Shown piece after piece: positions 7,502 to 58,812 of a stretch of 64,000 bases of DNA. Source of the DNA: a virus (taxonomy: Duplodnaviria; Caudoviricetes); the IMG/VR virus record IMGVR_UViG_3300026735_000021, positions 22,625 to 86,624 of that record. One strand, given 5' to 3'. Under the pieces are notes generated by a model. The model made no database searches. It was not told the DNA's origin and saw only the letters and a list, made by a program, of their open reading frames with translations. Numbering within the stretch: position 1 is the stretch's first letter; each line of letters begins with the position of its first letter. The position numbers and the translations under genes are program-made.

Positions 7502-7507
7502 AGAAAA

Positions 7508-11810: not shown

Positions 11811-11849
11811 TCAATCCTTTCCTTTTATTAAAAACACGAAAGGTCAACA

Positions 11850-29695: not shown

Positions 29696-29725
29696 AAAAA
29701 GACTACAATATGTAGTCTTTTTTTT
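29696..29725. terminator. Bidirectional terminator between convergent genes
   Basis: AAAAAGACTAC-AATAT-GTAGTCTTTTT. Confidence 0.8.
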
Positions 29726-37228: not shown

Positions 37229-37540
37229 TTATTTCGTCTTTTCATTGTCCGAGCGCAAACGCCGTTTGTATGTTCGACTTGCCGTAAATACAAATGACTT
37301 ATGGGCAGGAATTTCATATTCTTCTTTTGATTTCGGATTTCGACCTTTATGCCCTTTTCGATCTTTCATTTCGAAACGACCCCTACCTTGAAATCTAACC
37401 ATATGGCCAAGTTCAACCTCGTCCTGAAGAATATCCCAAAACGCATCCACCATTTCTGTTGTTTCATCAACTGTTTTATTCAATTTGGCACTAAGCAAAC
37501 GAACAAAATCACCTTTATTTAATTTGACAGGTTTCGTCAT
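37229..37540 (-). CDS. hup: HU-family DNA-binding protein
   Basis: LNK.DFV..L...., V.FQGRGRFE...RK..KGRNPKS.EE.EIPA.K...F.AS. Confidence 0.9.
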   Translation of the reverse strand: MTKPVKLNKGDFVRLLSAKLNKTVDETTEMVDAFWDILQDEVELGHMVRFQGRGRFEMKDRKGHKGRNPKSKEEYEIPAHKSFVFTASRTYKRRLRSDNEKTK

Positions 37541-39977: not shown

Positions 39978-40010
39978 AAAAGGATAACTTAATTGTTATC
40001 CTTTTTTTTT
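39978..40010. terminator. Terminator at end of the RNAP-like gene (likely bidirectional)
   Basis: AAAAGGATAAC/GTTATCCTTTT hairpin. Confidence 0.75.
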
Positions 40011-40018: not shown

Positions 40019-43000
40019 TTATGGTTCTAAATCATCTGACGATGACGATTTAGCCATATTTACAGTATGTTGTGATACCTCTACATTAGATAAATCAACT
40101 GAAGATTTTTCTTTTGGTAAAGGTTTTTCTAGGTTAGCTTCTACTTCACGTTGTTGAATTGCCACTTTATCGAGAATATCTTGTTTAAGCAATGTTGTTT
40201 CATCTGTTGCTTCTCGCATTTTAAGTGGCGCAAATTGTTGACTACGTTCACCTTCAAGGAGACTTCTATTCTTTTCAGCCAGTGCAATCAAACGATCATA
40301 ACCACCACCATATGCAACTTGGTCAAGAGGTGATCCTTTTTCTTTTGCAATTTCTTTGATTGATTTAACGGCTGTTGTGCCATTTTCACTCATAAGATTA
40401 GCAATTGTATCAAGATATTCTTCGTTGAAATCAACGCCCAATTTTTCAGAAAGAACATGAGTCATTTCTGATTTGAATTGGCGTGCCGAAATATCTTTTT
40501 GTTTACCATCTGCTGATTTACCACCATATAAATTATTCAATGAACTTGACAATTCATCATTGATGATTTTAGCTTGACGAGGGTCATGCTTAATTTGAAG
40601 TGTACCTTGTGTGATTGGATATGTGATTTCAAGGGCAGCTTTCATATCGTCATCACGCAATGCCGCAACCAATTTTTGAGAGAATCCACCGGCTAAACCA
40701 GTATCATCAGATTTAACACCCGTTGCTTCTTGAATGGCTTGAGCATCACTAAGGTTTTTGATTGGACGTTCATTGAATTTTTTAACTTCAATTTTTCCAG
40801 ATTCAATTTGTTTAGACAATTTGTCACTATCTGATTCAACTTCATACCCAAAATAATCCATCAATTCAACAAATTTGCTAGGACTACCTTTTGCTTTGTT
40901 TTTAACCATTTGGGCAAATGATTCAACCATAGACTGTTTATCATCTAATCGAACATAATCCCCACCAAACCCATGATCACGGAAAGCCTTATGGCTATAA
41001 TTATTCAAATCGCGCAATGCTTTTTTAGTCAACATGCCTGTTGCGTCTTTAGCATTTGCATTTGCTTTAGCTTGATTTAAAAGATCTGTTACTTCAGTAG
41101 AACCTGTATCTTTCAAAGCTTTAGCTTCAGCTGAAGACAAATCCATTCCGCTTTGGAAATATAAATCATACTGTCCATCTTTATTCAAACCAGCACCAAA
41201 ATCAAGCATGTTAGCTTCGTGTCCAAACAATTCTTTCAATTGTTTATTAGCTTCAGGTGAATGTAATTTGATAAGACCCATTGTATCACCATCAAAGTCC
41301 ATATCATGTGATTTGTCCGCAATTGGATTAATTGAAATACCATGAACAGATTCATCATGTTTAACGGTAAAGGCACGAATCGCACCGTCACGAAGAACTG
41401 GATCACGCCAGCCCATGACAACGTCACCTTCTTTAACACCAAGTGAAGCCATCATAGCGGAGTTCATACCAGCATCACCTATATCCAAACGAGGGTCTAC
41501 AATAGCTACAGCTGTTGCTGAGTTATTCATACGTTTACCCATGATCTTATCACGAATGAAACTATGTTTACCATTAGGCCCACCATTCAATTGACGGTCA
41601 ATGATTTCTGATTGAATTTTGTCAAATGCTTTTTGAACGGACGCTTGAGCCGTATCACGATCACGAACGAATCTATCGTATGCATTTTTGACAGATGTAT
41701 TATCCATATCACCTGTGAAGTTTTTGATTTTTTCATCAAGCTTATTGAACTCACCAAGGTTATCATACATTGAAACATAATGACCAGTAAAATCATGAAC
41801 GCGTAAGCGATCATCTACCAATTCTGTATCTTTACGCAGATTTGCTGACAATACAGGAATTTGGAACATGCCATCACTATCAGTTTGAACAGATTTTCCA
41901 TTTTTAAATTTAATATCAAATGGAACTTTAAGGAATCCACCATGATCTTTGATTTGGTTCAAGAAATCAGCTGGACTTTTCTCTGGGTCATAATCAAATG
42001 AGTTACGAATTTCACCAGTTTGAGGTGTATATTCTGAAAGCAATGTACCATCAGCTTTCATATCCAAACCAGTTGTAATCAAGTATTCACGGAATGTAGA
42101 CCAAGGGCCAACATTATCTCCATAAATTTCTTCCATGATTTTATCTGCATTTTTAGATTGCAATGCCCATGCCAACTGTCCTGATGCTTTACGTCCTTTA
42201 CCTGAAGCAATATCCTCAGCTGAATAAGCATGCGTTTTATGATCAACAGTTAAGTCAGTAACAATCACATTCAAGCTACCTGTAGCGCCTTTTAAGGTTT
42301 TACCTTCAATAGGGTCATAAACAGATTTAGTTTCACCATCCATCAATTCAAGAACGACACCCGCGTTATCACGACTTAACATTGAATATGGGGCACCAAC
42401 AAGATCTAACCAGGGGTTAGCTTTCATGATAGCTACTTCATGTGTAAGCTTTTGGGCTTCAGCCTCAGCTGGATCCATGTTTCGATCAATAACAATACCT
42501 AGTGTACCTTTGTTACCCCCAAAGTCGGAAATCTTATCACCACGTTGCAGTTTACGTAAAGATCCAAACTCATTTAATTTAGTATCAAATGTTTCTTTTG
42601 ACACTTTATTATTTAAACTTGCTTCATAAATTTCATACAAATTAAGAAAATCTTTATTTGTATATGGCAATTTCATACCTAATGCGTCGGAAATTGTACG
42701 CTCCCTTGGATTAAATTGATTACGGAAATCTGAAATAGTTTCACCATCTGAAGCTGATTTGAAAACTTCGAGCGCATGTAATGCCGCTTCTTTATTTTCC
42801 TCATTAACACTAGCACCAGGAACATAGTTACGTTCAGCAAATTCAAGTGATGCGGCATAACTATCGTCAAATGTCCAACCACCAAAGTCCGTCAATGCTG
42901 TCCCAACATTTTCATCAATATGTAGTGCTGTCATTAATTGATTGGCCGCCATTTGATTACGGTCCCATGCATTATAATCATGATATTTAAAATAATCTAA

Positions 43001-46000
43001 TTTTTGCAATGCTGTTTTATCTGCAACCAATTCGCCTTTATCATTAAACATTCCTTGACTAGCTTTAACTGAGCCATCAGGTTTAACCTCAGCTCCGTCG
43101 GTCAAGTACCAGATCAACCCTTGAGTTTTACCTGTACCTGTCATAGTCAAGTCCGCAATGTTAGTCAAATCAGAATCAAGAATACGCATATTCTTTTCAC
43201 CCGCAGCTTTGAAATAGCTAAATGCCGCTTCATCTTCTTCATTGATACGATTTTTTTCAGCACGAGTTGCGGCGCTTGTTGTCGCATGTTCTCCATATTG
43301 ATTATCGAAACGAACACGATTAGATAATGTTTTAAGAATAGCATCCACACATTCTTTATCAAGATTACTATTAGCCACAAAATCAAGATCAATACGTTTA
43401 CCGTATACATCTCCATGGTACAACCCATTAAGGGTGCTTGAATCTAATCCTGTTGGAATATTATTCAATGTCATATTAAACGGACGAAGCATTTGTCCAC
43501 GAACGGCAGCTCTAACTTGGTCTTGTAATGATTCTTCGAAGCCTTTTACACGAAAACGATCCATTCGACTATCATTTGCATAATCACCATCGAAACTGAA
43601 ATATCCAGTATAACCCGGAACTAAACCGTAATTTTCACCCGATGCAAATTTTGTTTTGATGATTCCATTTTCGTCTGGAATAATAATTTGTCCAATTTCA
43701 CCAGAAATTGTTTCAGGTACAGCTGCCTTCTTAGTTTGACCTTTCGTCCGAACAGCCGTCCATTTGACGATACCGTTTTCATCAATAAGCACTTCAGGTT
43801 TTGCCCCATTAACGCCTTTAAAATCACCGTCAGTCAAAGTATCTTGAATTGCAGTTAATGCTCGATATGTCATTGATGTTTGTGGTACATCATCAATAGA
43901 TATAGCTGATCCTGGATCAAATTTAATCAAACGGTCTTTTACTGAGTTAGTCGCGAAATCATTACCATGAAGTTTATTTAAATCATAATTTGAAACTTTA
44001 AGAGCTGACATTGTCGCTTCACGAACATTTCGACGAGATGTTTCACGAACATTATCAATAATAAATCCTGGAGTAAATCCAGTTTCATATGAACCTACGG
44101 TTTCGTCCATAATCATGTCAAAAATTTCATTACCAAATTCAGTAATATCATCAGGTCCAACTTCTCGATTAGACAATACAGTTGCATCGTAAATTGACAA
44201 CAAATCAAAATCTGACTCTTTAATAGAAACAAGCATTTCAGCTTTCATTAATTCAGCATTGCCATCAGCATAAAGTTGAGTTAATTTCATAACATCATCA
44301 ATATAACCTTTTTGCAGTTCTTGAATGTTTTGATTAAGACTATACAAACTTGTCATTTCTTCACGGACACGAGCCATACCTTCTTTATCTTTAGTTACCG
44401 CAAATTCCCTAAATTCTGCTAACTTTTCATTAATTTCATTACGTTTGAAATCTGACGCCACAAGAGACCGAACGTCAGCAATTGATTCACGCAAGAAGTC
44501 TTCTGCCTCCGCGGGTGTATTAAACACAATGGAATCAAAACGATGTTTTACAGGTGAGACGTACAAGTGATCAGCACTATTTTCAGCCAATTCACGAACA
44601 ATAACACTATTGCTATCACTCTTAGACATGACAATCTTACCACCCTTACGACCCATAACGAAATCTAATTGTGATTTAATATCATTAACCGTAGGTTCTG
44701 CCCTACCACCTTGCTCTTTACGAAGATAGTAATATGAATTAAATGAATCATATACACGTCCAATATACTGAGGTTTTTCATCAAATACACGGAGATTTGT
44801 ATTTGGACGCATTTCTCCATTTGAAAGACCATTCAATGTCAGCTCAAGGATATTTTGTGATTTAGATTCTTTGATTGAAAAATCAATACCATTACTACGA
44901 AGATAACGTAAAATTTCTACAGACTTATACGCTGTTTCTCGAGATACTTTGATATCGCTAGAGATCAAACGTGACGCTAATACCGCATCAGGTCCTGACA
45001 AATATGCTCCTATTGCATGTTTTAATCCAGGCTTACGATCATCACCTTTACCTGAACCATCCCAGCCAATAAACACATCAGTAGAGTCAATATCAAATTC
45101 ATCTTCTGTTTCAGCATCAGTTTCAGCTTCAAGATTTACATCATCAAATGGATTTGTTGCGGTGTCAATGCTTATATCATTACCCGATTCAGCATAAGTG
45201 CCAATAGGCGCACCACTATTATCGATCAATTGAACTGATGTCAAACCATCAGTCAATAATTCACGAAGAGATCCATTACGGCTGTACATAAACGCTTTAC
45301 GATAAGTGTTATTATTAAATAATTCATTATCAGCAAAACGTGGATCCACAATTGATGTTGGATGCAAGTTGGCATTAACACGAACATCATATTCTTGTTT
45401 AAATTTATTATTTTGATTAACAATCCACTCAGTATTATTCAAATTATCAGAAACAGAGGAAAGACTAACCCCTTTAGTTTCTTCAATCATTGAAGCTAAT
45501 TGTTTCAAATGTGATGGACGAAGACCTGTTGTTGAAAAATCAACACCCAAATCAGCTCGAAGCTTACGGTAATCATTAAGATTAAGTTTCGTTACACCAT
45601 CCGGCAAATTTGAACTCATAAGCATCATCCATTGTAACATATTGAACTCAGCCGTATTTTGTTCTAATTGTGTTTTCATACTTTCTTTACCATCCGAATA
45701 CACACCAGCCTCTGTTCCATCACTGTTAAGAATAGATACACCACTAGCGGAACCATCATCAATCAATTCATGAAGACTTTTATCTCGAGTATAAAGAAAA
45801 GGCTTATTGTTATTAGGATTCGAAATCACCGTGTTATCAATAAATGTTGGATCAATTATTGATGTAGGATGCATATTACGATTAACACGATCCGCATATA
45901 TTGCTTTAAATGCATTATTTTGATTAACAATCCAATCCCTATTATTGAAATTAGTTTTAAAGTTGTCCAATTCAGTTGTCACACCAGCCACACCACCAAT

Positions 46001-46207
46001 AAGTGAAACCAGTTGTTTCAAATGAGACGGATGAATACCAGTTGTTGAAAAATCAACACCCCAATCTGATCGAACTCTACGATAGTCCGGAACTTTTAAA
46101 CGACGTTGTTCTGGTAGTTGACTACCAATCAACATCATCCATTGGAATGCATTAAACTCAGATTGATTCTGAGCTAAAGCTGTTTTCTTCTGTACAGTAT
46201 CTGCCAT
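40019..46207 (-). CDS. Putative single-chain two-barrel RNA polymerase (beta-like and beta'-like cores fused)
   Basis: GWTFDDS (~beta GYNFEDS), RKLQRGDKISDFGGNKG (~beta GDKxxGRHGNKG), MGKRMNNSATAV (~beta' LGKRVDYSGRSV), RDPVLRDGAIRAF (~RAPTLHRLGIQAF), DMDFDGD (~NADFDGD), in the expected order. Confidence 0.85.
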   Translation of the reverse strand: MADTVQKKTALAQNQSEFNAFQWMMLIGSQLPEQRRLKVPDYRRVRSDWGVDFSTTGIHPSHLKQLVSLIGGVAGVTTELDNFKTNFNNRDWIVNQNNAFKAIYADRVNRNMHPTSIIDPTFIDNTVISNPNNNKPFLYTRDKSLHELIDDGSASGVSILNSDGTEAGVYSDGKESMKTQLEQNTAEFNMLQWMMLMSSNLPDGVTKLNLNDYRKLRADLGVDFSTTGLRPSHLKQLASMIEETKGVSLSSVSDNLNNTEWIVNQNNKFKQEYDVRVNANLHPTSIVDPRFADNELFNNNTYRKAFMYSRNGSLRELLTDGLTSVQLIDNSGAPIGTYAESGNDISIDTATNPFDDVNLEAETDAETEDEFDIDSTDVFIGWDGSGKGDDRKPGLKHAIGAYLSGPDAVLASRLISSDIKVSRETAYKSVEILRYLRSNGIDFSIKESKSQNILELTLNGLSNGEMRPNTNLRVFDEKPQYIGRVYDSFNSYYYLRKEQGGRAEPTVNDIKSQLDFVMGRKGGKIVMSKSDSNSVIVRELAENSADHLYVSPVKHRFDSIVFNTPAEAEDFLRESIADVRSLVASDFKRNEINEKLAEFREFAVTKDKEGMARVREEMTSLYSLNQNIQELQKGYIDDVMKLTQLYADGNAELMKAEMLVSIKESDFDLLSIYDATVLSNREVGPDDITEFGNEIFDMIMDETVGSYETGFTPGFIIDNVRETSRRNVREATMSALKVSNYDLNKLHGNDFATNSVKDRLIKFDPGSAISIDDVPQTSMTYRALTAIQDTLTDGDFKGVNGAKPEVLIDENGIVKWTAVRTKGQTKKAAVPETISGEIGQIIIPDENGIIKTKFASGENYGLVPGYTGYFSFDGDYANDSRMDRFRVKGFEESLQDQVRAAVRGQMLRPFNMTLNNIPTGLDSSTLNGLYHGDVYGKRIDLDFVANSNLDKECVDAILKTLSNRVRFDNQYGEHATTSAATRAEKNRINEEDEAAFSYFKAAGEKNMRILDSDLTNIADLTMTGTGKTQGLIWYLTDGAEVKPDGSVKASQGMFNDKGELVADKTALQKLDYFKYHDYNAWDRNQMAANQLMTALHIDENVGTALTDFGGWTFDDSYAASLEFAERNYVPGASVNEENKEAALHALEVFKSASDGETISDFRNQFNPRERTISDALGMKLPYTNKDFLNLYEIYEASLNNKVSKETFDTKLNEFGSLRKLQRGDKISDFGGNKGTLGIVIDRNMDPAEAEAQKLTHEVAIMKANPWLDLVGAPYSMLSRDNAGVVLELMDGETKSVYDPIEGKTLKGATGSLNVIVTDLTVDHKTHAYSAEDIASGKGRKASGQLAWALQSKNADKIMEEIYGDNVGPWSTFREYLITTGLDMKADGTLLSEYTPQTGEIRNSFDYDPEKSPADFLNQIKDHGGFLKVPFDIKFKNGKSVQTDSDGMFQIPVLSANLRKDTELVDDRLRVHDFTGHYVSMYDNLGEFNKLDEKIKNFTGDMDNTSVKNAYDRFVRDRDTAQASVQKAFDKIQSEIIDRQLNGGPNGKHSFIRDKIMGKRMNNSATAVAIVDPRLDIGDAGMNSAMMASLGVKEGDVVMGWRDPVLRDGAIRAFTVKHDESVHGISINPIADKSHDMDFDGDTMGLIKLHSPEANKQLKELFGHEANMLDFGAGLNKDGQYDLYFQSGMDLSSAEAKALKDTGSTEVTDLLNQAKANANAKDATGMLTKKALRDLNNYSHKAFRDHGFGGDYVRLDDKQSMVESFAQMVKNKAKGSPSKFVELMDYFGYEVESDSDKLSKQIESGKIEVKKFNERPIKNLSDAQAIQEATGVKSDDTGLAGGFSQKLVAALRDDDMKAALEITYPITQGTLQIKHDPRQAKIINDELSSSLNNLYGGKSADGKQKDISARQFKSEMTHVLSEKLGVDFNEEYLDTIANLMSENGTTAVKSIKEIAKEKGSPLDQVAYGGGYDRLIALAEKNRSLLEGERSQQFAPLKMREATDETTLLKQDILDKVAIQQREVEANLEKPLPKEKSSVDLSNVEVSQHTVNMAKSSSSDDLEP

Positions 46208-46306
46208 GAAGTTGTTACTCCTTTTCTGAGGATATATTTAGAATAATCCTATCCTATAAGTAATATTTTACCATAATATCAGGTAAGATTCTAATTAAAA
46301 CTTAAA

Positions 46307-46336
46307 CAAAAAAAACAGAAAGCAGTTGCTTTCTGT
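46307..46336 (-). terminator. Intrinsic terminator after virD4
   Basis: CAGAAAGCA/TGCTTTCTG stem followed by T run on - strand. Confidence 0.8.
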
Positions 46337-46342: not shown

Positions 46343-47668
46343 TTAATCAATTTGAATTTTTCTATTATAGGTTGATGCTACGGCTGCGTCGAATCGACCG
46401 CCAGCAATATCAGACCATGAATCTAACGAAACAAGCCATTTAACAAAGGCATCTGTCACTTCATATTTAAGTGTACGATCCGTATTTTCATCCATTCCAT
46501 TAATTTTAGAATTTGCATCACGAGACGCAGCATCCAATTCATCAATTTCATCAGAATTAAGACCAGTTAAACTTCTAATAAAAACTTCATTTTGATCGCT
46601 ATAAAGTTCACCAGTATCTTTGTTATATCGAAATTTAGTATCATTTTTAAAGTATTGCTCTGTATCTTGATATGCTTCACTCAACACACGATACAATTCA
46701 CCCGATAATTGGCCGGCTTCATTAACAAACATTGATTTAGACAACAGTCCTTTTGCATATATTTTAATTTCATTTTTAAGAACATTCTGTTTCAATTTAT
46801 CAACTTCATCTAATAATTCATTATTAGGAACTGAACTTTCAACAAGATCTTGACCCCTACGCTCAGCTAGTTCCTCGGCCGCTACTTGTGCTTGAATATA
46901 TTCATCCTCTGAATTGAAACCAGAGTCTCGCCAAACTTCTTGATTATGATCAGATTTATACAAGAAATCATTAATGGCATTCATTAAATCATCACTTAAT
47001 ACATCCGGGTCTAATTGATCCATATGATGTTCTGTATAATCATAAACTGACATATATGTTGTTCTTACTGTGTCAACCATTTTTGCTTGTTCCAATCGTT
47101 TATCCAACATAGCATAGAAGTTTGGTTGATTTTGTCTCACATCAAAATCTTTAGCCAATGACAAAGTAGGAACTGTTTGTAATGAATACTTCTTACGAGG
47201 GTCACGAATTGTATTTCCAAGCAAAGCATAACTCATTGCCAATACTGTTTCATTCCTATTCCACACAGGTGAAACCCCTGCTCTAAGAACAACACTATTC
47301 CGAGGTGGAATGAACAGCAAATCATTGAATGATATAACTGGGCGTTCTTTTGTTGACATTGTATAAGATATACGTCCCTCATTTTTATTTAAGATACGTT
47401 CATTATCACGAGTGATTGTTTTAGATTCAATCAATGATTCATGAGTTTGTCCTGACAACTTAACCAATGTATCTAACATTGAGTCATCTGTTGATTTCAA
47501 GAAAACAATAGAGGCATTACCTTGAATAATTTTATCAACACTATCCCCGTAAACGTCCCGTAATTGTTGTAATGTTTGTAATATAAGTGTAAATTGTTGA
47601 TCTTGACCCAGCCCAATACTTAACATTGTTTGTAATGCTGGGATACCATGACCCTCATTTTGTAAGTT
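46343..47668 (-). CDS. virD4: VirD4/TraG coupling protein, exon 4
   Basis: Begins NLQNEGHGIPALQTMLSIGLGQDQQFTLILQTLQQL, continuing the Walker B MLDELG of exon 3; ORF-track prefix MLRTSETTNKKKT is intron sequence. Confidence 0.88.
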   Translation of the reverse strand, partial: NLQNEGHGIPALQTMLSIGLGQDQQFTLILQTLQQLRDVYGDSVDKIIQGNASIVFLKSTDDSMLDTLVKLSGQTHESLIESKTITRDNERILNKNEGRISYTMSTKERPVISFNDLLFIPPRNSVVLRAGVSPVWNRNETVLAMSYALLGNTIRDPRKKYSLQTVPTLSLAKDFDVRQNQPNFYAMLDKRLEQAKMVDTVRTTYMSVYDYTEHHMDQLDPDVLSDDLMNAINDFLYKSDHNQEVWRDSGFNSEDEYIQAQVAAEELAERRGQDLVESSVPNNELLDEVDKLKQNVLKNEIKIYAKGLLSKSMFVNEAGQLSGELYRVLSEAYQDTEQYFKNDTKFRYNKDTGELYSDQNEVFIRSLTGLNSDEIDELDAASRDANSKINGMDENTDRTLKYEVTDAFVKWLVSLDSWSDIAGGRFDAAVASTYNRKIQID

Positions 47669-49625
47669 CGTTTTTTTTTTATTTGTCGTTTCACTTGTTC
47701 GTAACACAAGCTCTATGTTAATTCATAGCACCCTCATTACAAGGCGTTAACCAGACTATATGTCAAGGTCTACTACTTTCGTAGCGATTCCCCCATCTAT
47801 TTTTCGCGCACGTCATATACTTACGTCGCTAACGGAGACGCCATCTCCTAGTCGTTAGAGGTTATACCTAAAACATTAGGCATAAGTCCTACCCGAACAT
47901 GCTCTTTTTACTAATTAAAGTACATCAACTTAGCAACACTATTAATGTTTTTTTATTTCAGCATATTGACATCTTACTTATTTCTTTCAGGTTTCCCAGC
48001 ATTCACGCTCATTGTTACCAATCACGTTGTAGCAAAGTAAGCTCTTAAAGCACTTCCGCGGGTTTAATTGATGTAAAGGTACGCACACATTACATATACG
48101 CAGGGCACTTACTTCAATTAAGAGTTTCTTATTATTTATTCAAAAATTTTATTTCCAATCATGTCTAATGGGGCATCCATCACTAATCCAACGTTTGGCA
48201 TCATTGAGATTACAATCCCATAATACAACATAATTCAAATTATTGGCACGAGCCATAGTTCGTTTGGTCACATCAGACCCCGTCCAAATATCAACATATC
48301 GATCATATAATGGTGTATGTTTTGATTTTAAATAATCAACTTTAGTCAAATCTTCATCAGATTCAGGATCAAACCATTTCCCACCATGTAACCATGTAGC
48401 ATTTAATTCAATAAATAAATCTAAAGATTTAATATAAAAATCGCAATTAAATGGGTATCGTTTATCTAAACGATGTTGTGTCATCACATCATCTTGCCCA
48501 AAATAATTAACAAGCATTTTACCTAATAATTGTTCAGGTTTTGATGTATTCATTGTGCCATTCATCTTTTTAGTATTCTGTATCTTCATAATAGTCTCTT
48601 CTGAACCAAGACAACTTCGTCCGATACTACTACTAGCCCAATGTTCTGATCCATATCTAATCAAACATGTTGATTTTCGTTTATTCATATATTCTTCTGA
48701 ATAAAACACACGCTTAGCATCATTACTCGTTTGCCATAATTGTGAACCATATCTAATCATATTTGTTGCTTTAGTTTTAGCTACAACTTCATCCGCTGAT
48801 AATAATTGTTTCAATCGAACTCTAGCTTCAGCTGATTGCCAATAATAAGGTACACCATATCGTTTCATTGATGTTTCTTTATATTTACGTTGAACATCTG
48901 CTGACAACATGCGTTCACTTCTCAGTTGTCGTTCTTCTGGCGTATTAAATATATGATTTAAATATTCTTTGCCTTCAGTGCTTTGCGTCCAATGATTTGC
49001 TCCATGATTTTTTAAAGATGTAGCTCTATATTTGGCTCGAGCGTCATCAGATTTAATTCCATCTGACATTTTTTTCCGCACATCGTCAGAACCTAATATT
49101 TCAACGAGTTTTTCTTTACCTATATCACTCTCTGCCCACGTTTTAGACCCATATTTTTCAATATTTGTATTCATCGCTTTAGCTCGAGATTTTTTAGACC
49201 AAGGTCCCTCGTTATTTTCTTTCAACATGCGAGCATTATCACTACCAGCCCATGACTCACTACCATATTTGTCATTATTTGTTTTACGTCGTTTTGCTAA
49301 TACTTCATCCGACTTAATGCGTTCACTTTGTTGTTTACGACGTTCAGGTGTCCAATAATTAGCTACATTTTCTTTTGCACAAATTTTGCAATAACCACCC
49401 TGTAAATGATATCCAGGTGTTATTTCAAAATCACCATGAATAGAACAAATAACAATAACTTTAGTAGCATTATTAATATAGTCTACTTTGGAATAATCAT
49501 AATTATATTTTTCAATTATTCCTTTATCTTTGAGTTTTTGAATAAATAAGTTAAGTTTACTTAATTTTTGTTCAGTCATAATATGTATTTCCTTTTCGGT
49601 TTATACTTATATTATAACATAATCA
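47669..49625 (-). mobile_element. Group I intron (intron 3 of virD4) with homing endonuclease in the P1 loop
   Basis: P-like GAATGCTGGGAAACC, R TCTAACGACTAG (47847..47859), S GACATATAGTCT (47753..47764), terminal G at 47669; IGS GTAAGTGCCCTG (48101..48112) pairs with both exons; 5' boundary uncertain by 1 nt. Confidence 0.88.
48149..49579 (-). CDS. Intron-encoded homing endonuclease, PD-(D/E)xK/Vsr-like (EDxHD-type)
   Basis: N-terminal CSIHG...CKIC module, ~40-aa repeats (KT...KYGxxxW), C-terminal CDFYIKSLDLFIELN...HGGKWFD. Confidence 0.8.
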   Translation of the reverse strand: MTEQKLSKLNLFIQKLKDKGIIEKYNYDYSKVDYINNATKVIVICSIHGDFEITPGYHLQGGYCKICAKENVANYWTPERRKQQSERIKSDEVLAKRRKTNNDKYGSESWAGSDNARMLKENNEGPWSKKSRAKAMNTNIEKYGSKTWAESDIGKEKLVEILGSDDVRKKMSDGIKSDDARAKYRATSLKNHGANHWTQSTEGKEYLNHIFNTPEERQLRSERMLSADVQRKYKETSMKRYGVPYYWQSAEARVRLKQLLSADEVVAKTKATNMIRYGSQLWQTSNDAKRVFYSEEYMNKRKSTCLIRYGSEHWASSSIGRSCLGSEETIMKIQNTKKMNGTMNTSKPEQLLGKMLVNYFGQDDVMTQHRLDKRYPFNCDFYIKSLDLFIELNATWLHGGKWFDPESDEDLTKVDYLKSKHTPLYDRYVDIWTGSDVTKRTMARANNLNYVVLWDCNLNDAKRWISDGCPIRHDWK

Positions 49626-49626
49626 A

Positions 49627-50457
49627 CCCCAATTCATCAAGCATATACTTAGTTTTGTAAAGAGGCTTTTGTGACTCTTTTACAATATAAGATAAGTCGA
49701 CATTTGAATCGAATGTTTGTTTGATAAGAATCAATATCAATTTAGCATATGTCATCAAATGTGGTGGTGTAATCATAAATACAATTTTTGGTTTTTCTGT
49801 GTATTTTACAGTGCTTTGGCTAAACGCTGGCACTTTAACAATCTTTTCAACAGAACCACCCTCACGAATGTTACGATATTTACGATTAACCATTGTTTGT
49901 TGATAAATGTAGTTTCCAGAACGCGTTTTATGCATTTCACGTAAAACTCCGTCCTTGATAATTTTATTACCCAATACAGGATCTTTGACATAAGATTTAC
50001 CATCAAGGTCGGTTTTATATGTGAGTTCCAATTCAAAATAGAAAGTTTTTATCAACAGTTCTGTTTCTGGATTTCGAATTTCCAGTTTAACATAGGCTTT
50101 TTTACTTTTAGATGTATCAAATTTACCATCAAAGTAATATCTAGCCCAACCTGTTCTATCAATAAGTTGACTGTGATCAAATTGATCGGATTTAGGTCTA
50201 ACGTCCGTCAACTCACCATCACGGTCATAAATCTTACCATCAACTTCTACGTAGCCGTCATTTAACAAACGTCTACTAAAGTTTTTATCTTCATATGCTG
50301 ACCATACAGCTTGCGTTCCAAACATTTTATATCGAGACTCATACTCAGGTGCAAACCTAACTCCTAATCGACGAGGAAATGATAATCCTGCCGCATCGAA
50401 ATTTTGAGACGGTTTACCTGATGTAAGCGTTGATATTGTTGGATCTGTGAAAAAACT
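49627..50457 (-). CDS. virD4: VirD4/TraG coupling protein, exon 3
   Basis: Begins SFFTDPTISTLTSG, ends Walker B KYMLDELG; contains IVFMITPPH; ORF-track prefix MSDKWHQNVTYRN is intron domain VI. Confidence 0.85.
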
Positions 50458-51114
50458 ATTACGATAGGTAACATTTTGATGCCATTTATCTGACAAACTT
50501 TTATATGTTTCATGTCGTTTTCATGACAGCTCCACGTTTTCCCCCGTACCACACCGTGCATGCGACTTTCACCGCACACGGCGTTCCCTCAATATGTATA
50601 AATTAAAAATTATACATATTGACTTGTGACCATCACTTCTTCGTCCATTACAGACGCTATCATTATTTCGATCACTACTTTTCAGCACAAATTCATCTGC
50701 TTATTGTTCTTCGTCAGACTACTGTTCGCTTTGTACCTTTCCACGTTCCAATTGATTTATCGTACATAATATACTTAGGTGCTTTCTATACTTGAGCATT
50801 ACATCATACACCTTTAATGTATCAAGGTTTTTCTACGCAATGACAATACTAAACCTCATAATATTCAAGTTTTAAATCGAAAGTTCGTCCAACTATTGTT
50901 ATACTCACCATATATATTGACGCCCGCCCTATCTAATTTTCATTATTCAGGCGACTTTACCGAGCTTCGAACATATAATGTTTCCATTTAATGCACGTCG
51001 GAGATTAGCGTAAACGCTTCAGATCGTTACATCTTCATTTCGTTTATCAATCAATTAGTTCTCCATGAGAATATTCTCATGTGTAAACACTTTTCATGTT
51101 CAAACGTGTCGCAC
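50458..51114 (-). mobile_element. ORF-less group II intron (intron 2 of virD4), 657 nt
   Basis: Starts GTGCG after GCA ATG; domain V ACGCCGTGTGCGGTGAAAGTCGCATGCACGGTGT; ends TACCTATCGTAAT (AY); removal gives in-frame TAM|SFF. Confidence 0.92.
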
Positions 51115-51840
51115 CATTGCAGTTAATGCAATTCCATATACTGACGCTATGGTTTTATCTGAACCAGCCATTGCACGTAATGCGCTGTCAGCATTATTTA
51201 CTAGATTTCTCATACTATTCTTAGGCAACTTAGCTGTTGCATCAAAGAATAATGTCAAGAAGTCTTTTTCTTCTACTACTTCGTCAGCATCAATTTTGAT
51301 TTTTGACTCATCCGTAGATTTTTTCGCAGATAATAATACAAACAATTGATATGCATTATATAACGTTACTTTACCCCAAAGATCGCCGATACGTTGGTTG
51401 AGCACTTTAGGATCAACTCCTGCCTGCTCAGCTTCACGTCTCATTTGTTTTTCTTCTTCGAGGTAGAAATCGATCAAGCCAAACGCCGAACGCTTAAACG
51501 CGTTGTTCGCGGCATTTGGCCACATTGGATCATCCGCTCCTTCTTTGGGGAAGAAAATGTCACCAATGTTTTCAACGTAACTTGCTGCTTTTGTGAAGTC
51601 CCCTTCACGTGCGGCATCAGCCGCATAACCCAATGGATTGTAAATGTCAGTTTTAGATGCATTAATCAAATTAAACTGAACAACTTCATATCCACGTACG
51701 GTTGCAGGTATAAAAAATTTAACCAATAACTCCCCTTTAGGGTCGTTAATTATGATATTGTCTTGTCGTTTCTGACGAGTCCACATATCAATTGTAGGTT
51801 CAATTACTGTTTGGCCCTTCCCAGCTCGAGTTATGGCTAA
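51115..51840 (-). CDS. virD4: VirD4/TraG coupling protein, exon 2
   Basis: LAITRAGKGQT (Walker A), IINDPKGEL, FNL......YNPL, DPMW. Confidence 0.9.
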
Positions 51841-51929
51841 CTTAAGGCTGGGAACGAGTTCGTCGCGATTCTTAACTCCGAACCCTATATATACTTTCAT
51901 ATATAAAGACTATGTGTTAATCAAAAATG

Positions 51930-52940
51930 TTAATATGTGTTTTCTTTATGATCTTTTAGAAAACATTCAGTGTTGCAATCATAATCATAGAACCATACAT
52001 TAAAATCTCTCAATTTTGGTTCATATATTTTTTTATTAGAAATTTGTCCATCCCAGAAAACTAAATAATTTAAATTATTTGATTTAGCTACATTTTTCTT
52101 TTCAATATCAGAATATCTCCAATTGTTTGCAGCTTTTTCCAATGATCCACCTTTTGACACCCAATTATCATAAAACTCTAAATCATTAGGGTCATTACTA
52201 TCAAACCATCGATCATTATGGCTATAAAAGCCATTCATTTCAATGAATAAATCATTAGATTTAATATAAAAATCACAATCATAAGGATATCTATCATCTA
52301 ATGGATATCGTCCATAATGTATTTTCACATCATCTATTCCAAATTTGGAAATCAACTTTTTATATACATATAATTCAAATTGAGATAGTAGTTTTTTACT
52401 TAACAAATTATCATAATTATTAGATTCATTGCTTAATTCCAATTCAGTCATAAACAATTCATGTTTTGTTTTCAATGATTTATTTAACGCCTCAGGATTA
52501 GCCAAGCCAACACCACCATATTTTTCGGTCTGAGTTTCTCTAATCTTAAACAATCGTGCTTCTTCAGATAATTTTTTAAACTCAGTTTCACCTAATAGTT
52601 TTTTAAGTGTTGGAATTGCTCGTTTACCTAAAAACAAACAATTAAACAACTCAAAGCCATCCCATCTAGCATCATTCATTAAATGATCATGCATATACTC
52701 AGAAATAATAGCTCGTTGCTCCTCTTTGCTGTAATGCTCATTGATATATTTAATTTGAGTGTCAGGTATATCCTCAGGTTTGATTTCATTTAAACCATAT
52801 TGAACTCTTTTCTTATTTAAACCTCTCAACATGATTTTATGATCTTTTTGAAGATTTGACCATCCCATTAAATATTTATGACTAATATCATTAATTTCGT
52901 TCAAATCTAATGCTTCTAATTTATGATTTACAGTTACCAT
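51930..52940 (-). CDS. Intron-encoded homing endonuclease, PD-(D/E)xK/Vsr-like
   Basis: RYPYDCDFYIKSNDLFIEMNG..SH..RWFD, homologous to the C-terminus of 48149..49579. Confidence 0.8.
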   Translation of the reverse strand: MVTVNHKLEALDLNEINDISHKYLMGWSNLQKDHKIMLRGLNKKRVQYGLNEIKPEDIPDTQIKYINEHYSKEEQRAIISEYMHDHLMNDARWDGFELFNCLFLGKRAIPTLKKLLGETEFKKLSEEARLFKIRETQTEKYGGVGLANPEALNKSLKTKHELFMTELELSNESNNYDNLLSKKLLSQFELYVYKKLISKFGIDDVKIHYGRYPLDDRYPYDCDFYIKSNDLFIEMNGFYSHNDRWFDSNDPNDLEFYDNWVSKGGSLEKAANNWRYSDIEKKNVAKSNNLNYLVFWDGQISNKKIYEPKLRDFNVWFYDYDCNTECFLKDHKENTY

Positions 52941-52973
52941 TTATATTTACCTCGGTTTCGTTCTTATATATTA

Positions 52974-53002
52974 ATTATAACACCCAAACGAGCTCGAGTC
53001 AA
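52974..53002 (-). promoter_or_regulatory. Internal sigma70-type promoter for the intron 1 endonuclease
   Basis: TTGACT-17-TATAAT with TG extension. Confidence 0.75.
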
Positions 53003-53364
53003 GCATTTTAGTTGAATATCGATGCTTTTTTTTTCATTTTTGATCCTGGATTTTTCTTCTTTATAAGTCAGGTCATAACATATAAAGCTTTACATTAAGG
53101 ACTAAAGTCCGCCTTCGCAAAAGGCTAGTCGTTGAACGTCTCCCTTATTATAAAATTATAACTTAGGGCTTTCGCTGCTAAACATCCATTTATATGACGT
53201 TTTAGGATTTAACCCTGCGTCATCTCAATATTTTTTTCTACTTTCGTTACGTAACTTTCGTTCAGCTTATCGTTTCCAATTACTGTTTCCGTATATTGAG
53301 CTTTAGGAATTCCTAGCAATAAACACAGAGTACGTGCATGTCACCATACACGCAGTGCTAACCA

Positions 53365-54315
53365 CACCATTGTATTAATAGCATCTGTTTCAACCAAGTA
53401 GGCACCTGATGGGCGCTGTACTTCGTAATCGGGAATTTCCCAATCTTGATTGATCAAATCAGCTACGCCATCGTATTTTTGTTTTTCCCTATTAGGTCTT
53501 TTTCCTTTTTTATCAGCTTGATTATAAGGAATTTTTGACACATCAAATGGTTCTCTAATTTCTTTAGCATCATCAGGGATACCACTGGCTGTCATTAAAT
53601 CTTGCCCAAATTGTTCATCAATAATTGGCATCATTTTAGAGACAGGATTACCATCTAGGTCTAAGATAGCTTCACCCTCATAAACTCTATCAACAAATTT
53701 TTCACCAGTATCTTCATCAATAAATTCCATATTTTTAGATTCTGAATACCGTTGAGTAAACGGAACCTTTTTAAGACCTTTATTTGACAAATTAATATGG
53801 CTAATCATCATTGTAGGATTTACGCTTGAATGAGCGCCCACATCAGGGAAATAATCAAATGTACGAATAGCTTCATCTGGTAACATGATATACTGGTCAT
53901 TCATATGTGGATTAATATCAGTAGTGTCATTCATTGAATTTTCACTACGCCAATTTGCCATCATTCTATTGTATAAGATTCCCCATACCATAAAGCCTAT
54001 AAGGACACTTGAGCCCCATGCTTTCCATGATGATAATCCATTATTAATATTGAATGCAACTCCAGCTACACTATTACCTCGTGACAATTGAAGCACAATA
54101 TCAGCAATTCCCATTAAAATCGAAATTAAAAATACGGATCCAATTGTAACTATGATTGACACTATTATAGATAATATTCTACGTGCTTTTGGACTCGTTT
54201 TCTGGCCTTGTTTACCCCGTTCCAATGACTGTGAATTATACACATCACGGTTTGCCGGTGTATCAGTAAACGATCGACCTTTAACGATGTCCCAATTTGA
54301 CTTTTTATTTTTCAA
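53365..54315 (-). CDS. virD4: VirD4/TraG coupling protein, exon 1 (two N-terminal TM helices)
   Basis: Two TM segments, ends YLVETDAINTMV which joins LAITRAGKG of exon 2; TTG start with RBS GAGG. Confidence 0.85.
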
Positions 54316-54530: not shown

Positions 54531-56882
54531 TTATTTTTTATCAGTTGTTGATGATTTTGCTTCAGAACTTTTTGAGGCTGCTTGCTGGTCAGACCCTTTT
54601 GATTCAGATTTATCACCATAATAATTGTTATAAGTAGTTCCACCTTTATCATTAGATACTTGAGATTGAACCGATTGTACAGGTTGCGTTGTTGTTTTAT
54701 TATCACCATGCGACGCCATTACAAATCCACCAATCAAACCTAGAGCAATGGCGGCAATTGCTACAGCTACAACAATGACCATTTGTAATCGACCAGCTTT
54801 AGCTGTGCGTTCTTCCGCATAAGCGAGTTGATCAGTTAACGCTTTAATTTGATTTTGTCCTGTTTCAATTTGTGCTTGATATTTACTGTTAATTTCACCA
54901 TCCATGGTACTCAATTGAGTTTGAAGTGTATTAACTGATTTTTTCAAGTCAACATTCTGTTCATTTGCTTCATCAACTTTACGTGTCCATTCAGCAATCG
55001 TATTACTTAAATCTGATTGATGTTTATTTCTAAGATCTGCAATTTCAGATTCAGCTGAAATTTTAGCTTGAGCCAATTCATCTTCTTTAGCTTTAAGCAT
55101 AACGTTATATTGTTGACGTACTTCATCAGCTTTATGTTTTTGACGAAGTTCTTCAGCCAAGGCTTTGTTACGCATAACTTCGTTCGCATAATTTTCACGA
55201 ATAAATTTATCGATGTCATTACGGAATGAATCTTGGAATTGAATTTCACGAGCAACCATTTCTTTATATTTTTGTTGTAAATTAACAAGAATAGACGTAG
55301 ATGCTTTATCATACATACGACGAGCAACAACTTTACGTTCAGCATACATATCAGAAATATGAGCATCTGATTCGGCATTAACCTCAGAACGCATTTGTTC
55401 TTCACGTTTTGTTTTCAACAACTCGTTATCATCAAGATATAAATCATCATATTTACGAACAGCATCATCATAAGCTCGTTGTCCAAATTTATCACGTTTA
55501 ACATTGTATTCATTTTCGATACGTTGTCGTTCAGCCAAGGCAATATCTTCAAAGGCATTCAATGCAGCTTCTCGATTTTCTTGCAATGCCATATAACGTT
55601 TACCATAATCAGTAGATTCGTCATTATAATTAAGCATATCGACAAGAGAATCATGAGATTTAGACATTGCTAAATTATAAATTGAACGTAATTCTTGAAT
55701 ATTATCATTATGGAACTTCGTCATTTCAATATTAGCATCAGCATGCATTTTAGCAACGTGTCTACTTAATTCAGAATCATCAAGAGGTGCTTCATTAAAT
55801 AAAGCTAATTTAGTATCTTTATTATCGAAATGAAGATCAAACAATTTTGGATCAACATTTATTCCTAATTCATCATTATAGAATTCACGAGAAATTACTT
55901 CATCAACTAATTCTTTAGCATTAGTTTCATCCATATGCTCAAAAACAGAATCATCAAGTTCTAGGTCAGAATCATCATTAGGCAAATCATCTTCAACCGG
56001 AATCGTTGTATCTACATCATCATCGGCACCGAAATCAAATCCATCAGCCACTTCAAATGTATCATCTGTAAGGTCAGTATCATCATCAGGATTAATAGGA
56101 TAATCATCATTAGGATAATCGCCATCCTGCGAATCTTCTGCAAATGTATCGAAATCAGTTGTAGTATCAGGATCGAGAATAGATGGATCGTCAAACTCTG
56201 TCTGACTATCATCAGCATCAGAATTAACCAAAGCGTCAACATCGGATTCACCAACAACAATTGAACCATCTGGTTTTTGATGAAGTGGTGTTTCATTATT
56301 GGAAATATTAATTAAATCAGACAAATGAACAGTTGACTCAGTAACCGTTACTTCTGATTCATCCGTGATATCAACAGGGACAAGACCCCATTTAAACTCA
56401 ATTTCTCGAGCAAAACTAAATTCATCAAGTAGATCAAGAGAATCAGAATCAGGAATAATTACAATTTTATTATTACTCAAGTCTTTTTGTAGGAGCAACG
56501 ATTTAATTTGTTCACTTCGTAAGGCTTCAGCAAATGACCCAAATGATTCATCACCAGGTTGCAATCCTGAAGCAACAAGCATATCTTCAGTAAGAACAAC
56601 AACAGTATAGCCCTCATCAAGCAAACGTACAGCTGATGGCTCTTTTGTCATTTCCGATAGGACATTTAACCCCATTGATGCAACAGCATCGCTAAGGCCC
56701 ATACGAGAAATTAATGTTTTTGATTTGCGACGAGCCGTTCCTGTTGACGTCTCAGTTACTGCTGCACTAGGCTTTTTCTTAGCCTTTTTTCCACCACCAA
56801 ACAAGGACGCTTTTTGTTTTTTAGGCTTATTAGGCTTAACTTGTTTTTTGGCTACATTTTTAGTTTTTTTCTTAAATGCCAT
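54531..56882 (-). CDS. Transfer-region protein: globular N-terminus, acidic linker, long coiled coil, C-terminal TM
   Basis: D/E-rich tract, heptad-rich region, TM LQMVIVVAVAIAAIALGLIGGFVMA near C-terminus. Confidence 0.7.
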   Translation of the reverse strand: MAFKKKTKNVAKKQVKPNKPKKQKASLFGGGKKAKKKPSAAVTETSTGTARRKSKTLISRMGLSDAVASMGLNVLSEMTKEPSAVRLLDEGYTVVVLTEDMLVASGLQPGDESFGSFAEALRSEQIKSLLLQKDLSNNKIVIIPDSDSLDLLDEFSFAREIEFKWGLVPVDITDESEVTVTESTVHLSDLINISNNETPLHQKPDGSIVVGESDVDALVNSDADDSQTEFDDPSILDPDTTTDFDTFAEDSQDGDYPNDDYPINPDDDTDLTDDTFEVADGFDFGADDDVDTTIPVEDDLPNDDSDLELDDSVFEHMDETNAKELVDEVISREFYNDELGINVDPKLFDLHFDNKDTKLALFNEAPLDDSELSRHVAKMHADANIEMTKFHNDNIQELRSIYNLAMSKSHDSLVDMLNYNDESTDYGKRYMALQENREAALNAFEDIALAERQRIENEYNVKRDKFGQRAYDDAVRKYDDLYLDDNELLKTKREEQMRSEVNAESDAHISDMYAERKVVARRMYDKASTSILVNLQQKYKEMVAREIQFQDSFRNDIDKFIRENYANEVMRNKALAEELRQKHKADEVRQQYNVMLKAKEDELAQAKISAESEIADLRNKHQSDLSNTIAEWTRKVDEANEQNVDLKKSVNTLQTQLSTMDGEINSKYQAQIETGQNQIKALTDQLAYAEERTAKAGRLQMVIVVAVAIAAIALGLIGGFVMASHGDNKTTTQPVQSVQSQVSNDKGGTTYNNYYGDKSESKGSDQQAASKSSEAKSSTTDKK

Positions 56883-57015: not shown

Positions 57016-58812
57016 TTATTTTTGAATAGAACCAACTACAATTTTAGCTTTAGATTTAAGTTGGGTTTTTGATTTACTTGTCATTGTACCTTCAATCTTA
57101 GCTGCGATTTTCTTTTCATCTGGATGAATATTAATATATCTGGCCACCATACTGGTTAATTCAAGATTAAGACGACGAATGACACCACGAGCTCCACCCG
57201 CATCTGTATCTTTATCAATATTTTCATATAATAGATAATCAATAATAGTTTCAGTAACAGTCAATGTCACATTATGTTTATCATATACCTCTCGAATTAA
57301 TTGTCCAACTTTATTTCTAATAATACGATTCAACGTTTCAGGTTTCAAGTCATTAAATGCAATCATTGAATCAAACCTGTTAATTAATTCACTAGGAAAT
57401 GTTTGATCATTAATCAATGCTCTCCGAATAACTTTAACATAATTATACATACCTGATGAGCCATCAACGTCATCATTGTAATTTGAAATTTGTTTATAAA
57501 TATCCGAACCAACGTTAGTTGTGCCCACGATATATGAGTTAGCGAATGAAACTTCCCTATTATTTTTGTCAGACAATCGAGCATCATCTAATACTTGCAA
57601 TAGCAAGCGAGACGCGTCTGAGTGGGCTTTTTCAATTTCATCAATAAGAATAATACTATAAGGTTTAGCCCATACTCTCATAGTCAAATCTGTCCTAAAT
57701 TTATCAACGGATTCTGCTGTATTATATTCAGACATATCATATCGAATAAGGGCTGAATCGGACCCAAATATCAGATTGGCTAAACCTTTAGCCATTTCCG
57801 TTTTACCAACCCCAGTTGGACCTGTAAACAGGAATGATGTCATTGGTCTTGATTTATCATGCAAATCGGCGACTGCAATTTGTAATCGACGTTCAACCAT
57901 TTGAACGGCGTGCTTTTGGCCATAAACTCGAGAATTTAGGGCTCTTTCAATTTCACGACCATTTACATTGAATGCAACATTAATTCCAGAACTTTCATAA
58001 ATAACTGTTGCCAATAATGCTTTATTCATTTTAGCATGATAGGCTTTATGCCAACCAATCATAGCATCAAGCACTAAAATTGATTTACGCGGTTGACTAT
58101 TTGCTGGAATATATCTATTCGTATAATCATAAATATCATCATATAATGATCGATCAATAATCGCTTCTGAAACCTCATATTTTTTCGCCATATTTTTAAG
58201 AATAGTAATAACTGTTTCTTTATTAGGTTCACGAACATTAATACGTTGCAACCGTTCGACTAAGGCTTGATTTGATGATATATATTGATTAAATTCGCCA
58301 TATGTTGTTGCGGCAATAACTTTAATACCACGAGTCGCACTATCTGCCAGCATTGGTTTGATTGCTTCAGTTGCTGCTGTTGATAAATTCACAATTTGAT
58401 GAAATTCATCAATGAATAAGACTAATTCATAAGAGCTTGTCGAATTACGAAAACGTTGAGCGTCATCAAATAAACCTTTCAGTCGTGACGCCATTTGAAC
58501 GGCACCATCTTCACCTTGTTCACTCGCTGCCATCTTTGCAATATCTACTTCCAAATAAATACGATGGTCTTTGTCTACTACAGATGCGCCTTGAACTAAC
58601 GCCGTTTTACCTGATCCAGGTTCGCCCAGCAATATCGGATTAGACACTTCAGCCCGAGCCAAACTAGCCAATAAACTTCTAATCTCAGCATCACGACCAA
58701 TAATTTGACGAGATGGAGATTTTACAACTGTTGCATATTTTGATAAAGTTGGGAAATTTTTCAAGTCTTTAATCGCATCTTCTTTTTTTACATCTTGATT
58801 TAACAAATACAA
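57016..58812 (-). CDS. Clp/Hsp100 double-ring AAA+ ATPase (no N-domain, no middle domain)
   Basis: IIGRDAEI, NPILLGEPGSGKT, LFIDEFH, AATT..EF, GPTGVGKT, LIDEIEKAH, PSELINRF. Confidence 0.92.
   Translation of the reverse strand: MYLLNQDVKKEDAIKDLKNFPTLSKYATVVKSPSRQIIGRDAEIRSLLASLARAEVSNPILLGEPGSGKTALVQGASVVDKDHRIYLEVDIAKMAASEQGEDGAVQMASRLKGLFDDAQRFRNSTSSYELVLFIDEFHQIVNLSTAATEAIKPMLADSATRGIKVIAATTYGEFNQYISSNQALVERLQRINVREPNKETVITILKNMAKKYEVSEAIIDRSLYDDIYDYTNRYIPANSQPRKSILVLDAMIGWHKAYHAKMNKALLATVIYESSGINVAFNVNGREIERALNSRVYGQKHAVQMVERRLQIAVADLHDKSRPMTSFLFTGPTGVGKTEMAKGLANLIFGSDSALIRYDMSEYNTAESVDKFRTDLTMRVWAKPYSIILIDEIEKAHSDASRLLLQVLDDARLSDKNNREVSFANSYIVGTTNVGSDIYKQISNYNDDVDGSSGMYNYVKVIRRALINDQTFPSELINRFDSMIAFNDLKPETLNRIIRNKVGQLIREVYDKHNVTLTVTETIIDYLLYENIDKDTDAGGARGVIRRLNLELTSMVARYINIHPDEKKIAAKIEGTMTSKSKTQLKSKAKIVVGSIQK

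Follow-up and report, generated by a model that had tools for sequence, protein, structure and literature searches.

A single-chain two-barrel RNA polymerase encoded beside the coupling protein gene of a mobile element

We analyzed a 64,000-nt stretch of DNA (referred to below as the window), taken from positions 22,625 to 86,624 of the IMG/VR record IMGVR_UViG_3300026735_000021, which is catalogued as a virus (Duplodnaviria; Caudoviricetes); the whole record comprises 86.6 kb and is possibly incomplete. The list of open reading frames (ORFs) and their translations revealed a minus-strand gene of 2062 uninterrupted codons (40019..46207), and the identity of its 2062-aa product as a single-chain beta-beta' fusion, i.e. 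a two-barrel RNA polymerase (RNAP), is strongly supported. The final piece (46343-47707) of a gene encoding a type IV coupling protein (T4CP) lies 136 bp upstream of the start of the polymerase gene. Because its neighbours make up a relaxase/T4CP transfer module, we favor the view, to which we assign a probability of roughly 0.5, that the polymerase is a transfer-linked enzyme making RNA on the incoming single-stranded DNA of the element.

The polymerase and its catalytic core

A first-pass annotation, made from the sequence of the window, had described a single-polypeptide two-barrel RNAP adjoining the coupling protein, and this description was borne out. All of the motifs quoted in it are present at the coordinates it had given, and the beta-type motifs precede the beta'-type motifs in one chain. 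The former are GWTFDDS (residues 1110-1116; 42860-42880), which holds D1114 and D1115, and GDKISDFGGNKG (residues 1223-1234; 42506-42541), which holds K1225 and K1233. The latter are GKR (41531-41539), located inside MGKRM (residues 1556-1560; 41528-41542), RDPVLR (residues 1601-1606; 41390-41407), with R1601 and P1603, and DMDFDGD (residues 1635-1641; 41285-41305), with D1637, D1639 and D1641.

Excerpts of PMC2919709 list eight residues near the catalytic metals that are invariant across two-barrel polymerases: the three Asp residues of DxDGD, the Asp of the beta barrel, the R-x-P pair and two Lys residues eight positions apart. All of these are present in the protein (D1115, K1225, K1233, R1601, P1603, D1637, D1639 and D1641), and they are unchanged in 33 of 33 sequences of 33-95% identity. 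D1115 is preceded by a further acidic residue, D1114, at a position occupied by D or E throughout the family. According to the same excerpts, a fifth carboxylate before the beta-barrel Asp (E836 of Rpb2) is a trait of the cellular type that is missing from YonO and QDE-1 (PMC2919709). From this pattern of conservation we infer that the polymerase is an active, Mg-dependent, DNA-templated enzyme.

Comparison with domain models placed the same parts of the chain in the large RNAP subunits. The Pfam domain RNA_pol_Rpb1_2 was recognized within residues 1591-1660 (E 4e-7; 30.9 bits vs a curated cut-off of 25.3), and RNA_pol_Rpb2_6 matched residues 1214-1295 with a score below its cut-off (E 0.003; 17.3 vs 23.4 bits). 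In the homologue from Staphylococcus aureus both domains exceed the cut-off (51.6 and 47 bits; E 1e-13 and 4.5e-12). Residues 1545-1719 fit the beta', A' and gamma models of NCBIfam, and a profile built from 33 homologues retrieved beta'/Rpb1 chains from the PDB, with E values between 1e-15 and 1e-10. The scan of the polymerase with the PADLOC defence-system models gave no match.

The alignment of the 33 homologues served as the basis of an AlphaFold model covering residues 850-2000, which was confident (pLDDT 88, pTM 0.84). When this model was compared with the PDB using Foldseek, bacterial beta' ranked first (E 4e-12), and large RNAP subunits were also at the top of the ranking obtained with a viral library. 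A predicted structure lacking two double-psi beta-barrels would, according to the first-pass annotation, have refuted the polymerase identity; the model did not refute it, as it shows a beta-like module followed by a beta'-like module. The beta-like (RpoB-like) module (residues 850-1365; 42113..43660, minus strand), which includes GWTFDDS and GDKISDFGGNKG, was superposed by VIA-align on E. coli RpoB (Z 16.7, 365 residues, 20% identity). The beta'-like (RpoC/Rpb1-like) module (residues 1384-1999; 40211..42058, minus strand), with GKR, RDPVLR and DMDFDGD, superposed on Rpb1, beta' and the vaccinia protein Rpo147 (Z 16-17, 455-534 residues, rmsd 3-4 A).

The interval between GWTFDD and GDK is only approx. 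105 residues long and is entirely helical in the model; the SBHM flap of cellular beta is therefore predicted to be absent from this polymerase. Near the C-terminus, a 52-residue helix and the stretch that follows it contain two invariant motifs, ATGVKS..TGLAG.FSQ and TYP.TQ..LQ.KHD; the structural alignment reaches the end of Rpb1. A resemblance of these motifs to the bridge helix and the trigger loop is only suggested, and a profile of this candidate region retrieved no RNAP from the PDB. The first-pass annotation had also stated that no alpha, omega or sigma gene is visible. For alpha and sigma this stands, as neither RNA_pol_L (alpha-type dimerisation) nor Sigma70_r2 was matched in the 86.6-kb, possibly incomplete record; omega was not searched for.

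Distribution of the polymerase family

An exhaustive HMMER search yielded 478 clusters at 50% identity (338 of them at E 1e-30). With few exceptions, each is one chain of 1700-2600 aa whose C-terminal two thirds contain the polymerase core. With residues 1150-1750 as the query, more than 150 homologues were found, the closest being 93% identical over that region. The family members of the Bacillota originate from Paenibacillus, Evansella, Metabacillus, Staphylococcus, Lactococcus, Lachnospiraceae and Ruminococcus, and those of the Actinomycetota from Streptomyces, Arthrobacter, Kribbella, Microbacterium, Actinomyces, Bifidobacteriaceae and Coriobacteriia. Their genes are found both on plasmids and in chromosomes. 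All named database entries are designated "hypothetical", except for a small number of UniRef clusters that bear the name "DNA-directed RNA polymerase". The polymerase had no tblastn match among 50,697 phage records, and megablast against plasmids gave no match.

The transfer module and its conservation

The polymerase gene is part of a series of minus-strand genes in the order MobL, 260-aa protein, ClpB-like AAA+ ATPase, protein X, T4CP, polymerase and HU. The first of these encodes a relaxase of the MobL family (59749..62115; Pfam MobL, E 5e-40) and is separated by the gene of the 260-aa protein from that of a ClpB-like double AAA+ ATPase (57016..58812; Pfam AAA_2, E 4e-37, and ClpB_D2-small). 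Protein X (783 aa; 54531..56882) has a CorA-like C-terminal membrane segment (PADLOC CorA-like, E 7e-8) and is homologous to a 688-aa Streptomyces protein encoded at the equivalent position. It is followed by the gene (46343..54315; Pfam T4SS-DNA_transf and TraG-D_C) of the T4CP (VirD4-like), which in this module is a giant protein of 1300 aa, and by the polymerase gene, and on the far side of the latter lies the gene of an HU-type DNA-binding protein (37229..37540; Pfam Bac_DNA_binding, E 2e-19). An equivalent gene order, from MobL on, was found in a 639-kb Streptomyces plasmid and in a 55-kb S. aureus plasmid, on which the polymerase gene accounts for about one tenth of the DNA.

The neighbours were counted at loci with full 10-kb flanks (69 genome loci and 26 IMG/VR loci), a set that is dominated by related actinomycete elements and whose members are not independent. 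A T4CP gene is located directly upstream, on the same strand, at 92 of the 95 loci (67/69 and 25/26, respectively). Protein X is encoded at 64/69 genome and 17/26 IMG/VR loci, and the AAA+ protein at 63/69 and 6/26. Downstream of the polymerase gene, a 579-aa protein (61/69 and 21/26) and HU (58/69 and 21/26) recur. This MobL/AAA+/T4CP/HU setting is near-obligate across two phyla and appears to be new or under-described. Between the polymerase and HU genes of the window there is, on the opposite strand, a DUF285 (BspA-like repeat) gene (38542-39609, plus strand); in the actinomycete relatives this position is occupied by the conserved 579-aa protein, to which the window has no match.

The T4CP gene of the window consists of four collinear pieces (53341-54315, 51100-51900, 49612-50496 and 46343-47707) separated by three intervening sequences. 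A tblastn search with the intact 1350-aa T4CP of Streptomyces gave collinear matches to its residues 12-397, 387-659, 660-917 and 918-1350. Rfam identifies the middle insert (50458-51114) as a group II intron without an ORF (RF02004, 106.8 bits; RF00029, 57.8 bits). The other two inserts hold ORFs, one of 336 aa (51930-52940), which has no Pfam match, and one of 476 aa (48149-49579) with a DUF7487 domain. The Streptomyces versions of the AAA+ protein of the module (L008:1401-5696 and L007:453-3425) are longer than the protein of the window by approx. 380 residues with a LAGLIDADG domain, which are likely an intein. Taken with the T4CP introns, this insert makes the transfer module seem a favoured home of selfish elements.

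Promoters and the control region of the polymerase gene

The region upstream of the polymerase gene (46208..46336, minus strand) contains a terminator-like hairpin (46336-46315), located between the end of the T4CP gene and the polymerase gene, an extended -10 box (TGgTAAAAT) approx. 66 nt 5' of the ATG codon, and a ribosome-binding site (AAAGGAG) 8 nt 5' of this codon. A second, two-way terminator-like hairpin is present directly 3' of the stop codon (39978..40005; 40005-39978 in the direction of the gene, minus strand).

Among the 43 genes whose upstream gap measures 40 nt or more, 13 have a box of the type TGnTAnAAT 35-76 nt ahead of them, those of the RNAP, the T4CP and protein X included; the background was 2 on the antisense strand and 1.8 +/- 1.2 in shuffled sequences. 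Since such host-type boxes precede its genes, the element, including the polymerase gene itself, can be expressed by the host polymerase. General expression thus needs no private transcriptase, which disfavours such a role for the enzyme and points to a more specialised job, one for which the element could not depend on the host enzyme. The proposal of the first-pass annotation that this is a private polymerase for the transfer genes loses ground for the same reason, as these genes and the polymerase gene have host-type extended -10 promoters of their own. Its two other proposals, priming or early expression in recipients, are plausible. Host-type promoters on these elements appear to be new or under-described.

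A search for a repeated upstream motif of non-host type revealed only the host-type extended -10 boxes and an iteron-like cluster. In this cluster, at least 13 copies of AAAGTGGAACC and its reverse complement are grouped at 31267-32306, in a 1.4-kb gap between the ORFs 29724-31082 (minus strand) and 32453-32986 (plus strand). It looks like replication-origin iterons or a partition site.

Comparison with known polymerases and primases

In 2003, Iyer, Koonin and Aravind predicted fused beta-beta' polymerases (NCgl1702) on mobile elements of Gram-positive bacteria, as recounted in excerpts of PMC2919709 and PMC7824862. These excerpts speak of single chains of approx. 2000 aa on Gram-positive mobile elements, with the beta-type barrel first, about 40 conserved core residues in an otherwise unique sequence and a beta barrel that lacks the SBHM flap (PMC7824862). 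All of this agrees with the protein of the window, as does the link to NCgl1702-like fused polymerases that the first-pass annotation had drawn. The protein therefore most probably represents a further member of this computationally predicted kind, an assignment made by the published description. A difference is that the module of MobL, AAA+, T4CP, RNAP and HU genes is not mentioned in the excerpts of either article. The literature yielded no experimental study of an NCgl1702-like or plasmid-encoded two-barrel RNAP, which is in line with the first-pass annotation, where no experimental characterisation on a conjugative plasmid was known.

With the cellular enzymes (beta/beta', Rpb2/Rpb1) the polymerase shares catalytic modules that superpose over 365 and approx. 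500 residues, a match that goes past the barrels and takes in the GKR region of beta' (with the sequence match at rpoC positions 314-357), and the fifth carboxylate, which precedes the beta aspartate. It differs from them in that the modules are fused, the flap is lacking in the model, neither alpha nor sigma was matched, and a region of 850 residues is present at the N-terminus.

YonO of the Bacillus prophage SPbeta is likewise a single-chain two-barrel RNAP of a Bacillota mobile element and transcribes late phage genes (PMC5467207). The adjacent gene, yonN, encodes an HU-family protein (SPbeta, L088:10834-11112, minus strand) that is 29% identical to the HU protein of the window (E 9e-17). 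By analogy, this hints that HU may be a cofactor of the polymerase, whichever model of its role applies. In contrast to the polymerase described here, YonO has only 839 aa, belongs to a QDE-1-like clade and is encoded among virion genes. The first-pass annotation had named YonO as a relative; this holds at the level of the superfamily, and not at that of the sequence, where a comparison of the family profile with YonO by hhalign detected no relation (probability 0.07, E 0.67) and the phage records gave no tblastn match. The polymerase is much closer to cellular beta/beta'.

The best sequence match in the PDB (E 0.002, over only approx. 70 residues around RDPV...DFDGD) was gp96 of phage P23-45 (PDB 8H2M and 8H2N), an injected single-chain two-barrel virion RNAP fused to the tape measure protein (PMC10770324). 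Apart from its architecture, gp96 resembles our working model in that it enters a new host alongside the DNA and produces the first transcripts there. It differs in being a phage tail protein with a flat, clamp-less structure, whereas the partner of the polymerase studied here is a coupling protein.

Two plasmid primases, Sog of ColIb-P9 and TraC of RP4, are carried into recipient cells during conjugation, and their transport has been shown experimentally. The polymerase may be compared with them by functional analogy only, as an element-encoded enzyme from a transfer gene set that would prime the incoming single strand. Sog and TraC have primase folds of the Toprim/DnaG type and make short primers.

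Nature of the element

Five related records rated complete (L091, L105, L107, L114 and L111; 120-230 kb), two of which have terminal direct repeats, all hold genes of MobL (5/5), the T4CP and the polymerase. In the genome of C. glutamicum, used as a control, a match to MobL was present and no match to TraG-D_C was found.

The genes of the record include those of SecA, SecY, two Clp-type ATPases, UvrD- and RecD-type helicases and a ligase. The SecA and SecY genes lie at the very beginning of the window (2-3759, plus strand; Pfam E 1e-59 and 4e-70). The part of the record upstream of the window (record bases 33-13877) encodes TnpB, a reverse transcriptase, an SNF2 helicase and the anaerobic ribonucleotide reductase NrdD/NrdG.

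A phage was considered and rejected as unsupported, as there was no virion gene among the Pfam-scanned ORFs of the record. Searches of the five complete relatives for the HK97 capsid and TerL gave no match; other capsid families were not searched for. The "virus" label that IMG/VR gives to this class of elements looks doubtful.

A role in transfer and the alternatives

The course of events proposed for a transfer-linked enzyme would be as follows. In the donor, the host polymerase would make the RNAP from the extended -10 promoter. Its beta-like module would supply the two lysines and the Asp-Asp pair, and its beta'-like module GKR, R-x-P and DFDGD. The enzyme would then synthesise RNA on the transferred strand, in the form of primers for the complementary strand, first transcripts, or both, and establishment would become independent of the polymerase of the new host. 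The polymerase may travel with the DNA after being unfolded by the AAA+ protein, in the manner of the Sog and TraC primases and the virion polymerases of N4 and P23-45; a ClpB-like unfoldase would suit the unfolding of large secretion substrates. An extended version of this scheme, which we consider unlikely, would make the polymerase a cargo or working part of an undescribed, VirB4-less DNA-transfer system of Bacillota and Actinomycetota. In such a system MobL would nick the DNA, the AAA+ protein would unfold the relaxase and the polymerase, the coupling protein would pass both with the single strand, and RNA synthesis would take place in the recipient.

Several points weigh against a transfer-linked role. 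A VirB4-type ATPase was not found, either in this record (searched for AAA_10) or in the five complete relatives (AAA_10, CagE_TrbE_VirB and DUF87), and none of the large uncharacterised proteins of the S. aureus plasmid had a Pfam match; these elements may still encode a very divergent VirB4. As they possess a relaxase and a T4CP and no recognisable VirB4, the term "conjugative" can be applied to them only by inference. The designation "conjugative plasmid", used in the first-pass annotation, is thus supported with respect to the MobL relaxase and the T4CP, and not with respect to the ATPase. The absence of VirB4, at the Pfam level, from elements with MobL, T4CP and RNAP genes appears in itself to be new or under-described. 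In addition, a protein of 230 kDa would be a demanding secretion substrate, and a D5-type primase-helicase encoded by the element could cover priming. Shared regulation, and not a shared function, could underlie the synteny with the T4CP; a few relatives, e.g. that of Lactococcus pJM4A, have no adjacent T4CP, and the counted loci are not independent, although the module still spans two phyla.

The competing explanation that we take most seriously, regarding it as possible if somewhat doubtful, is that of a private transcriptase of the donor, which, like YonO, would use a few promoters of its own on double-stranded DNA and switch on a block of element genes, for instance those of mating or late functions, without host sigma factors. 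YonO provides the precedent, an HU gene lies 3' of the polymerase gene as yonN follows yonO, and the element is large and has many autonomous functions (Sec, ligase, helicases and ribonucleotide reductase). The lack of a sigma match in the record would mean that promoter recognition is built into the enzyme. Against this stand the host-type extended -10 promoters at 13 of the 43 upstream regions, those of the transfer module included, and the failure to find another repeated upstream motif. Moreover, the tight linkage is to a coupling protein and not to regulators, and the family has no detectable relation to YonO.

It is less probable still that the polymerase serves vegetative replication, by making an RNA primer or opening the origin, and has no role in transfer. 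Host RNAP is known to prime ColE1-type and some phage origins, large elements often encode replication functions of their own, and the iteron-like cluster and the D5-type helicase-primase gene are located 8-15 kb away from the polymerase gene. However, it is beside the relaxase/T4CP module, and not beside replication genes, that the gene has been kept, and on the S. aureus plasmid the RepA/ParA region lies elsewhere. A dead scaffold, that is, a structural part of the transfer apparatus, a DNA clamp or a motor with a polymerase fold, would be in keeping with the approx. 850 N-terminal residues that have no fold match, but we think it very improbable indeed: all catalytic residues of the superfamily are invariant down to 33% identity, which would not be expected without catalysis.

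We know of no well-studied conjugative element that employs anything other than host RNA polymerase or a small primase on incoming single-stranded DNA. Here, a complete minimal RNAP of the beta/beta' type is found beside the coupling protein almost without exception in widespread elements of two Gram-positive phyla, among them plasmids of staphylococci and lactococci and large plasmids of Streptomyces. Should the enzyme act on transferred DNA, this would explain establishment in distant hosts, and would provide a plasmid parallel to the injected RNA polymerases of phage virions. The synteny, the lack of a recognisable VirB4 and the host-type promoters together make a transfer-strand role a specific and testable functional hypothesis. 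Whatever its role, a compact, single-chain relative of the cellular RNAPs with neither a flap (as predicted) nor a sigma factor is attractive for studies of the minimal catalytic core.

The N-terminal region

The variable region of approx. 850 residues that precedes the catalytic modules was modelled at a pLDDT of 83. It begins with two tandem copies of a 165-residue domain, composed of helices and a small beta domain. Unit 1 (residues 8-172; 45692..46186, minus strand; pLDDT approx. 90) and its duplicate, unit 2 (residues 178-340; 45188..45676, minus strand), are 51% identical (internal local alignment score 426). Both copies are present only in this polymerase and its two closest relatives; the ten further homologues in which the unit was detected, all of them among the closer ones, have one copy.

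The duplicated units are followed by an acidic linker that is predicted to be disordered (residues 343-375; 45083..45181, minus strand; pLDDT <50) and by a conserved region specific to the family (residues 378-849; 43661..45076, minus strand; pLDDT mostly 80-90). In the model, the latter is made up of an alpha/beta domain (378-560) and a helical region (565-800); G440 is invariant, and D476, R484 and G519 are conserved at 90% or more.

Foldseek comparison of residues 1-860 with the PDB gave nothing at E <=0.001, and the best score of the N-terminal region in a VIA-align comparison with 48,161 chains (Z 6.1) was within the background. The same is true of the similarity of residues 417-520 to the C-terminal DNA-binding domain of T4 MotA (Z 5.4, 87 residues), which can serve as a lead only. 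A predicted complex of RNAP residues 1-530 with the C-terminal piece of the T4CP (454 aa, alignment of 20 rows) received a score of 0.00, which is not evidence either way.

Some members of the family carry a YpsA (SLOG) domain within the polymerase chain (e.g. L006:10001-15439), and the accessory parts of the chain are therefore modular.

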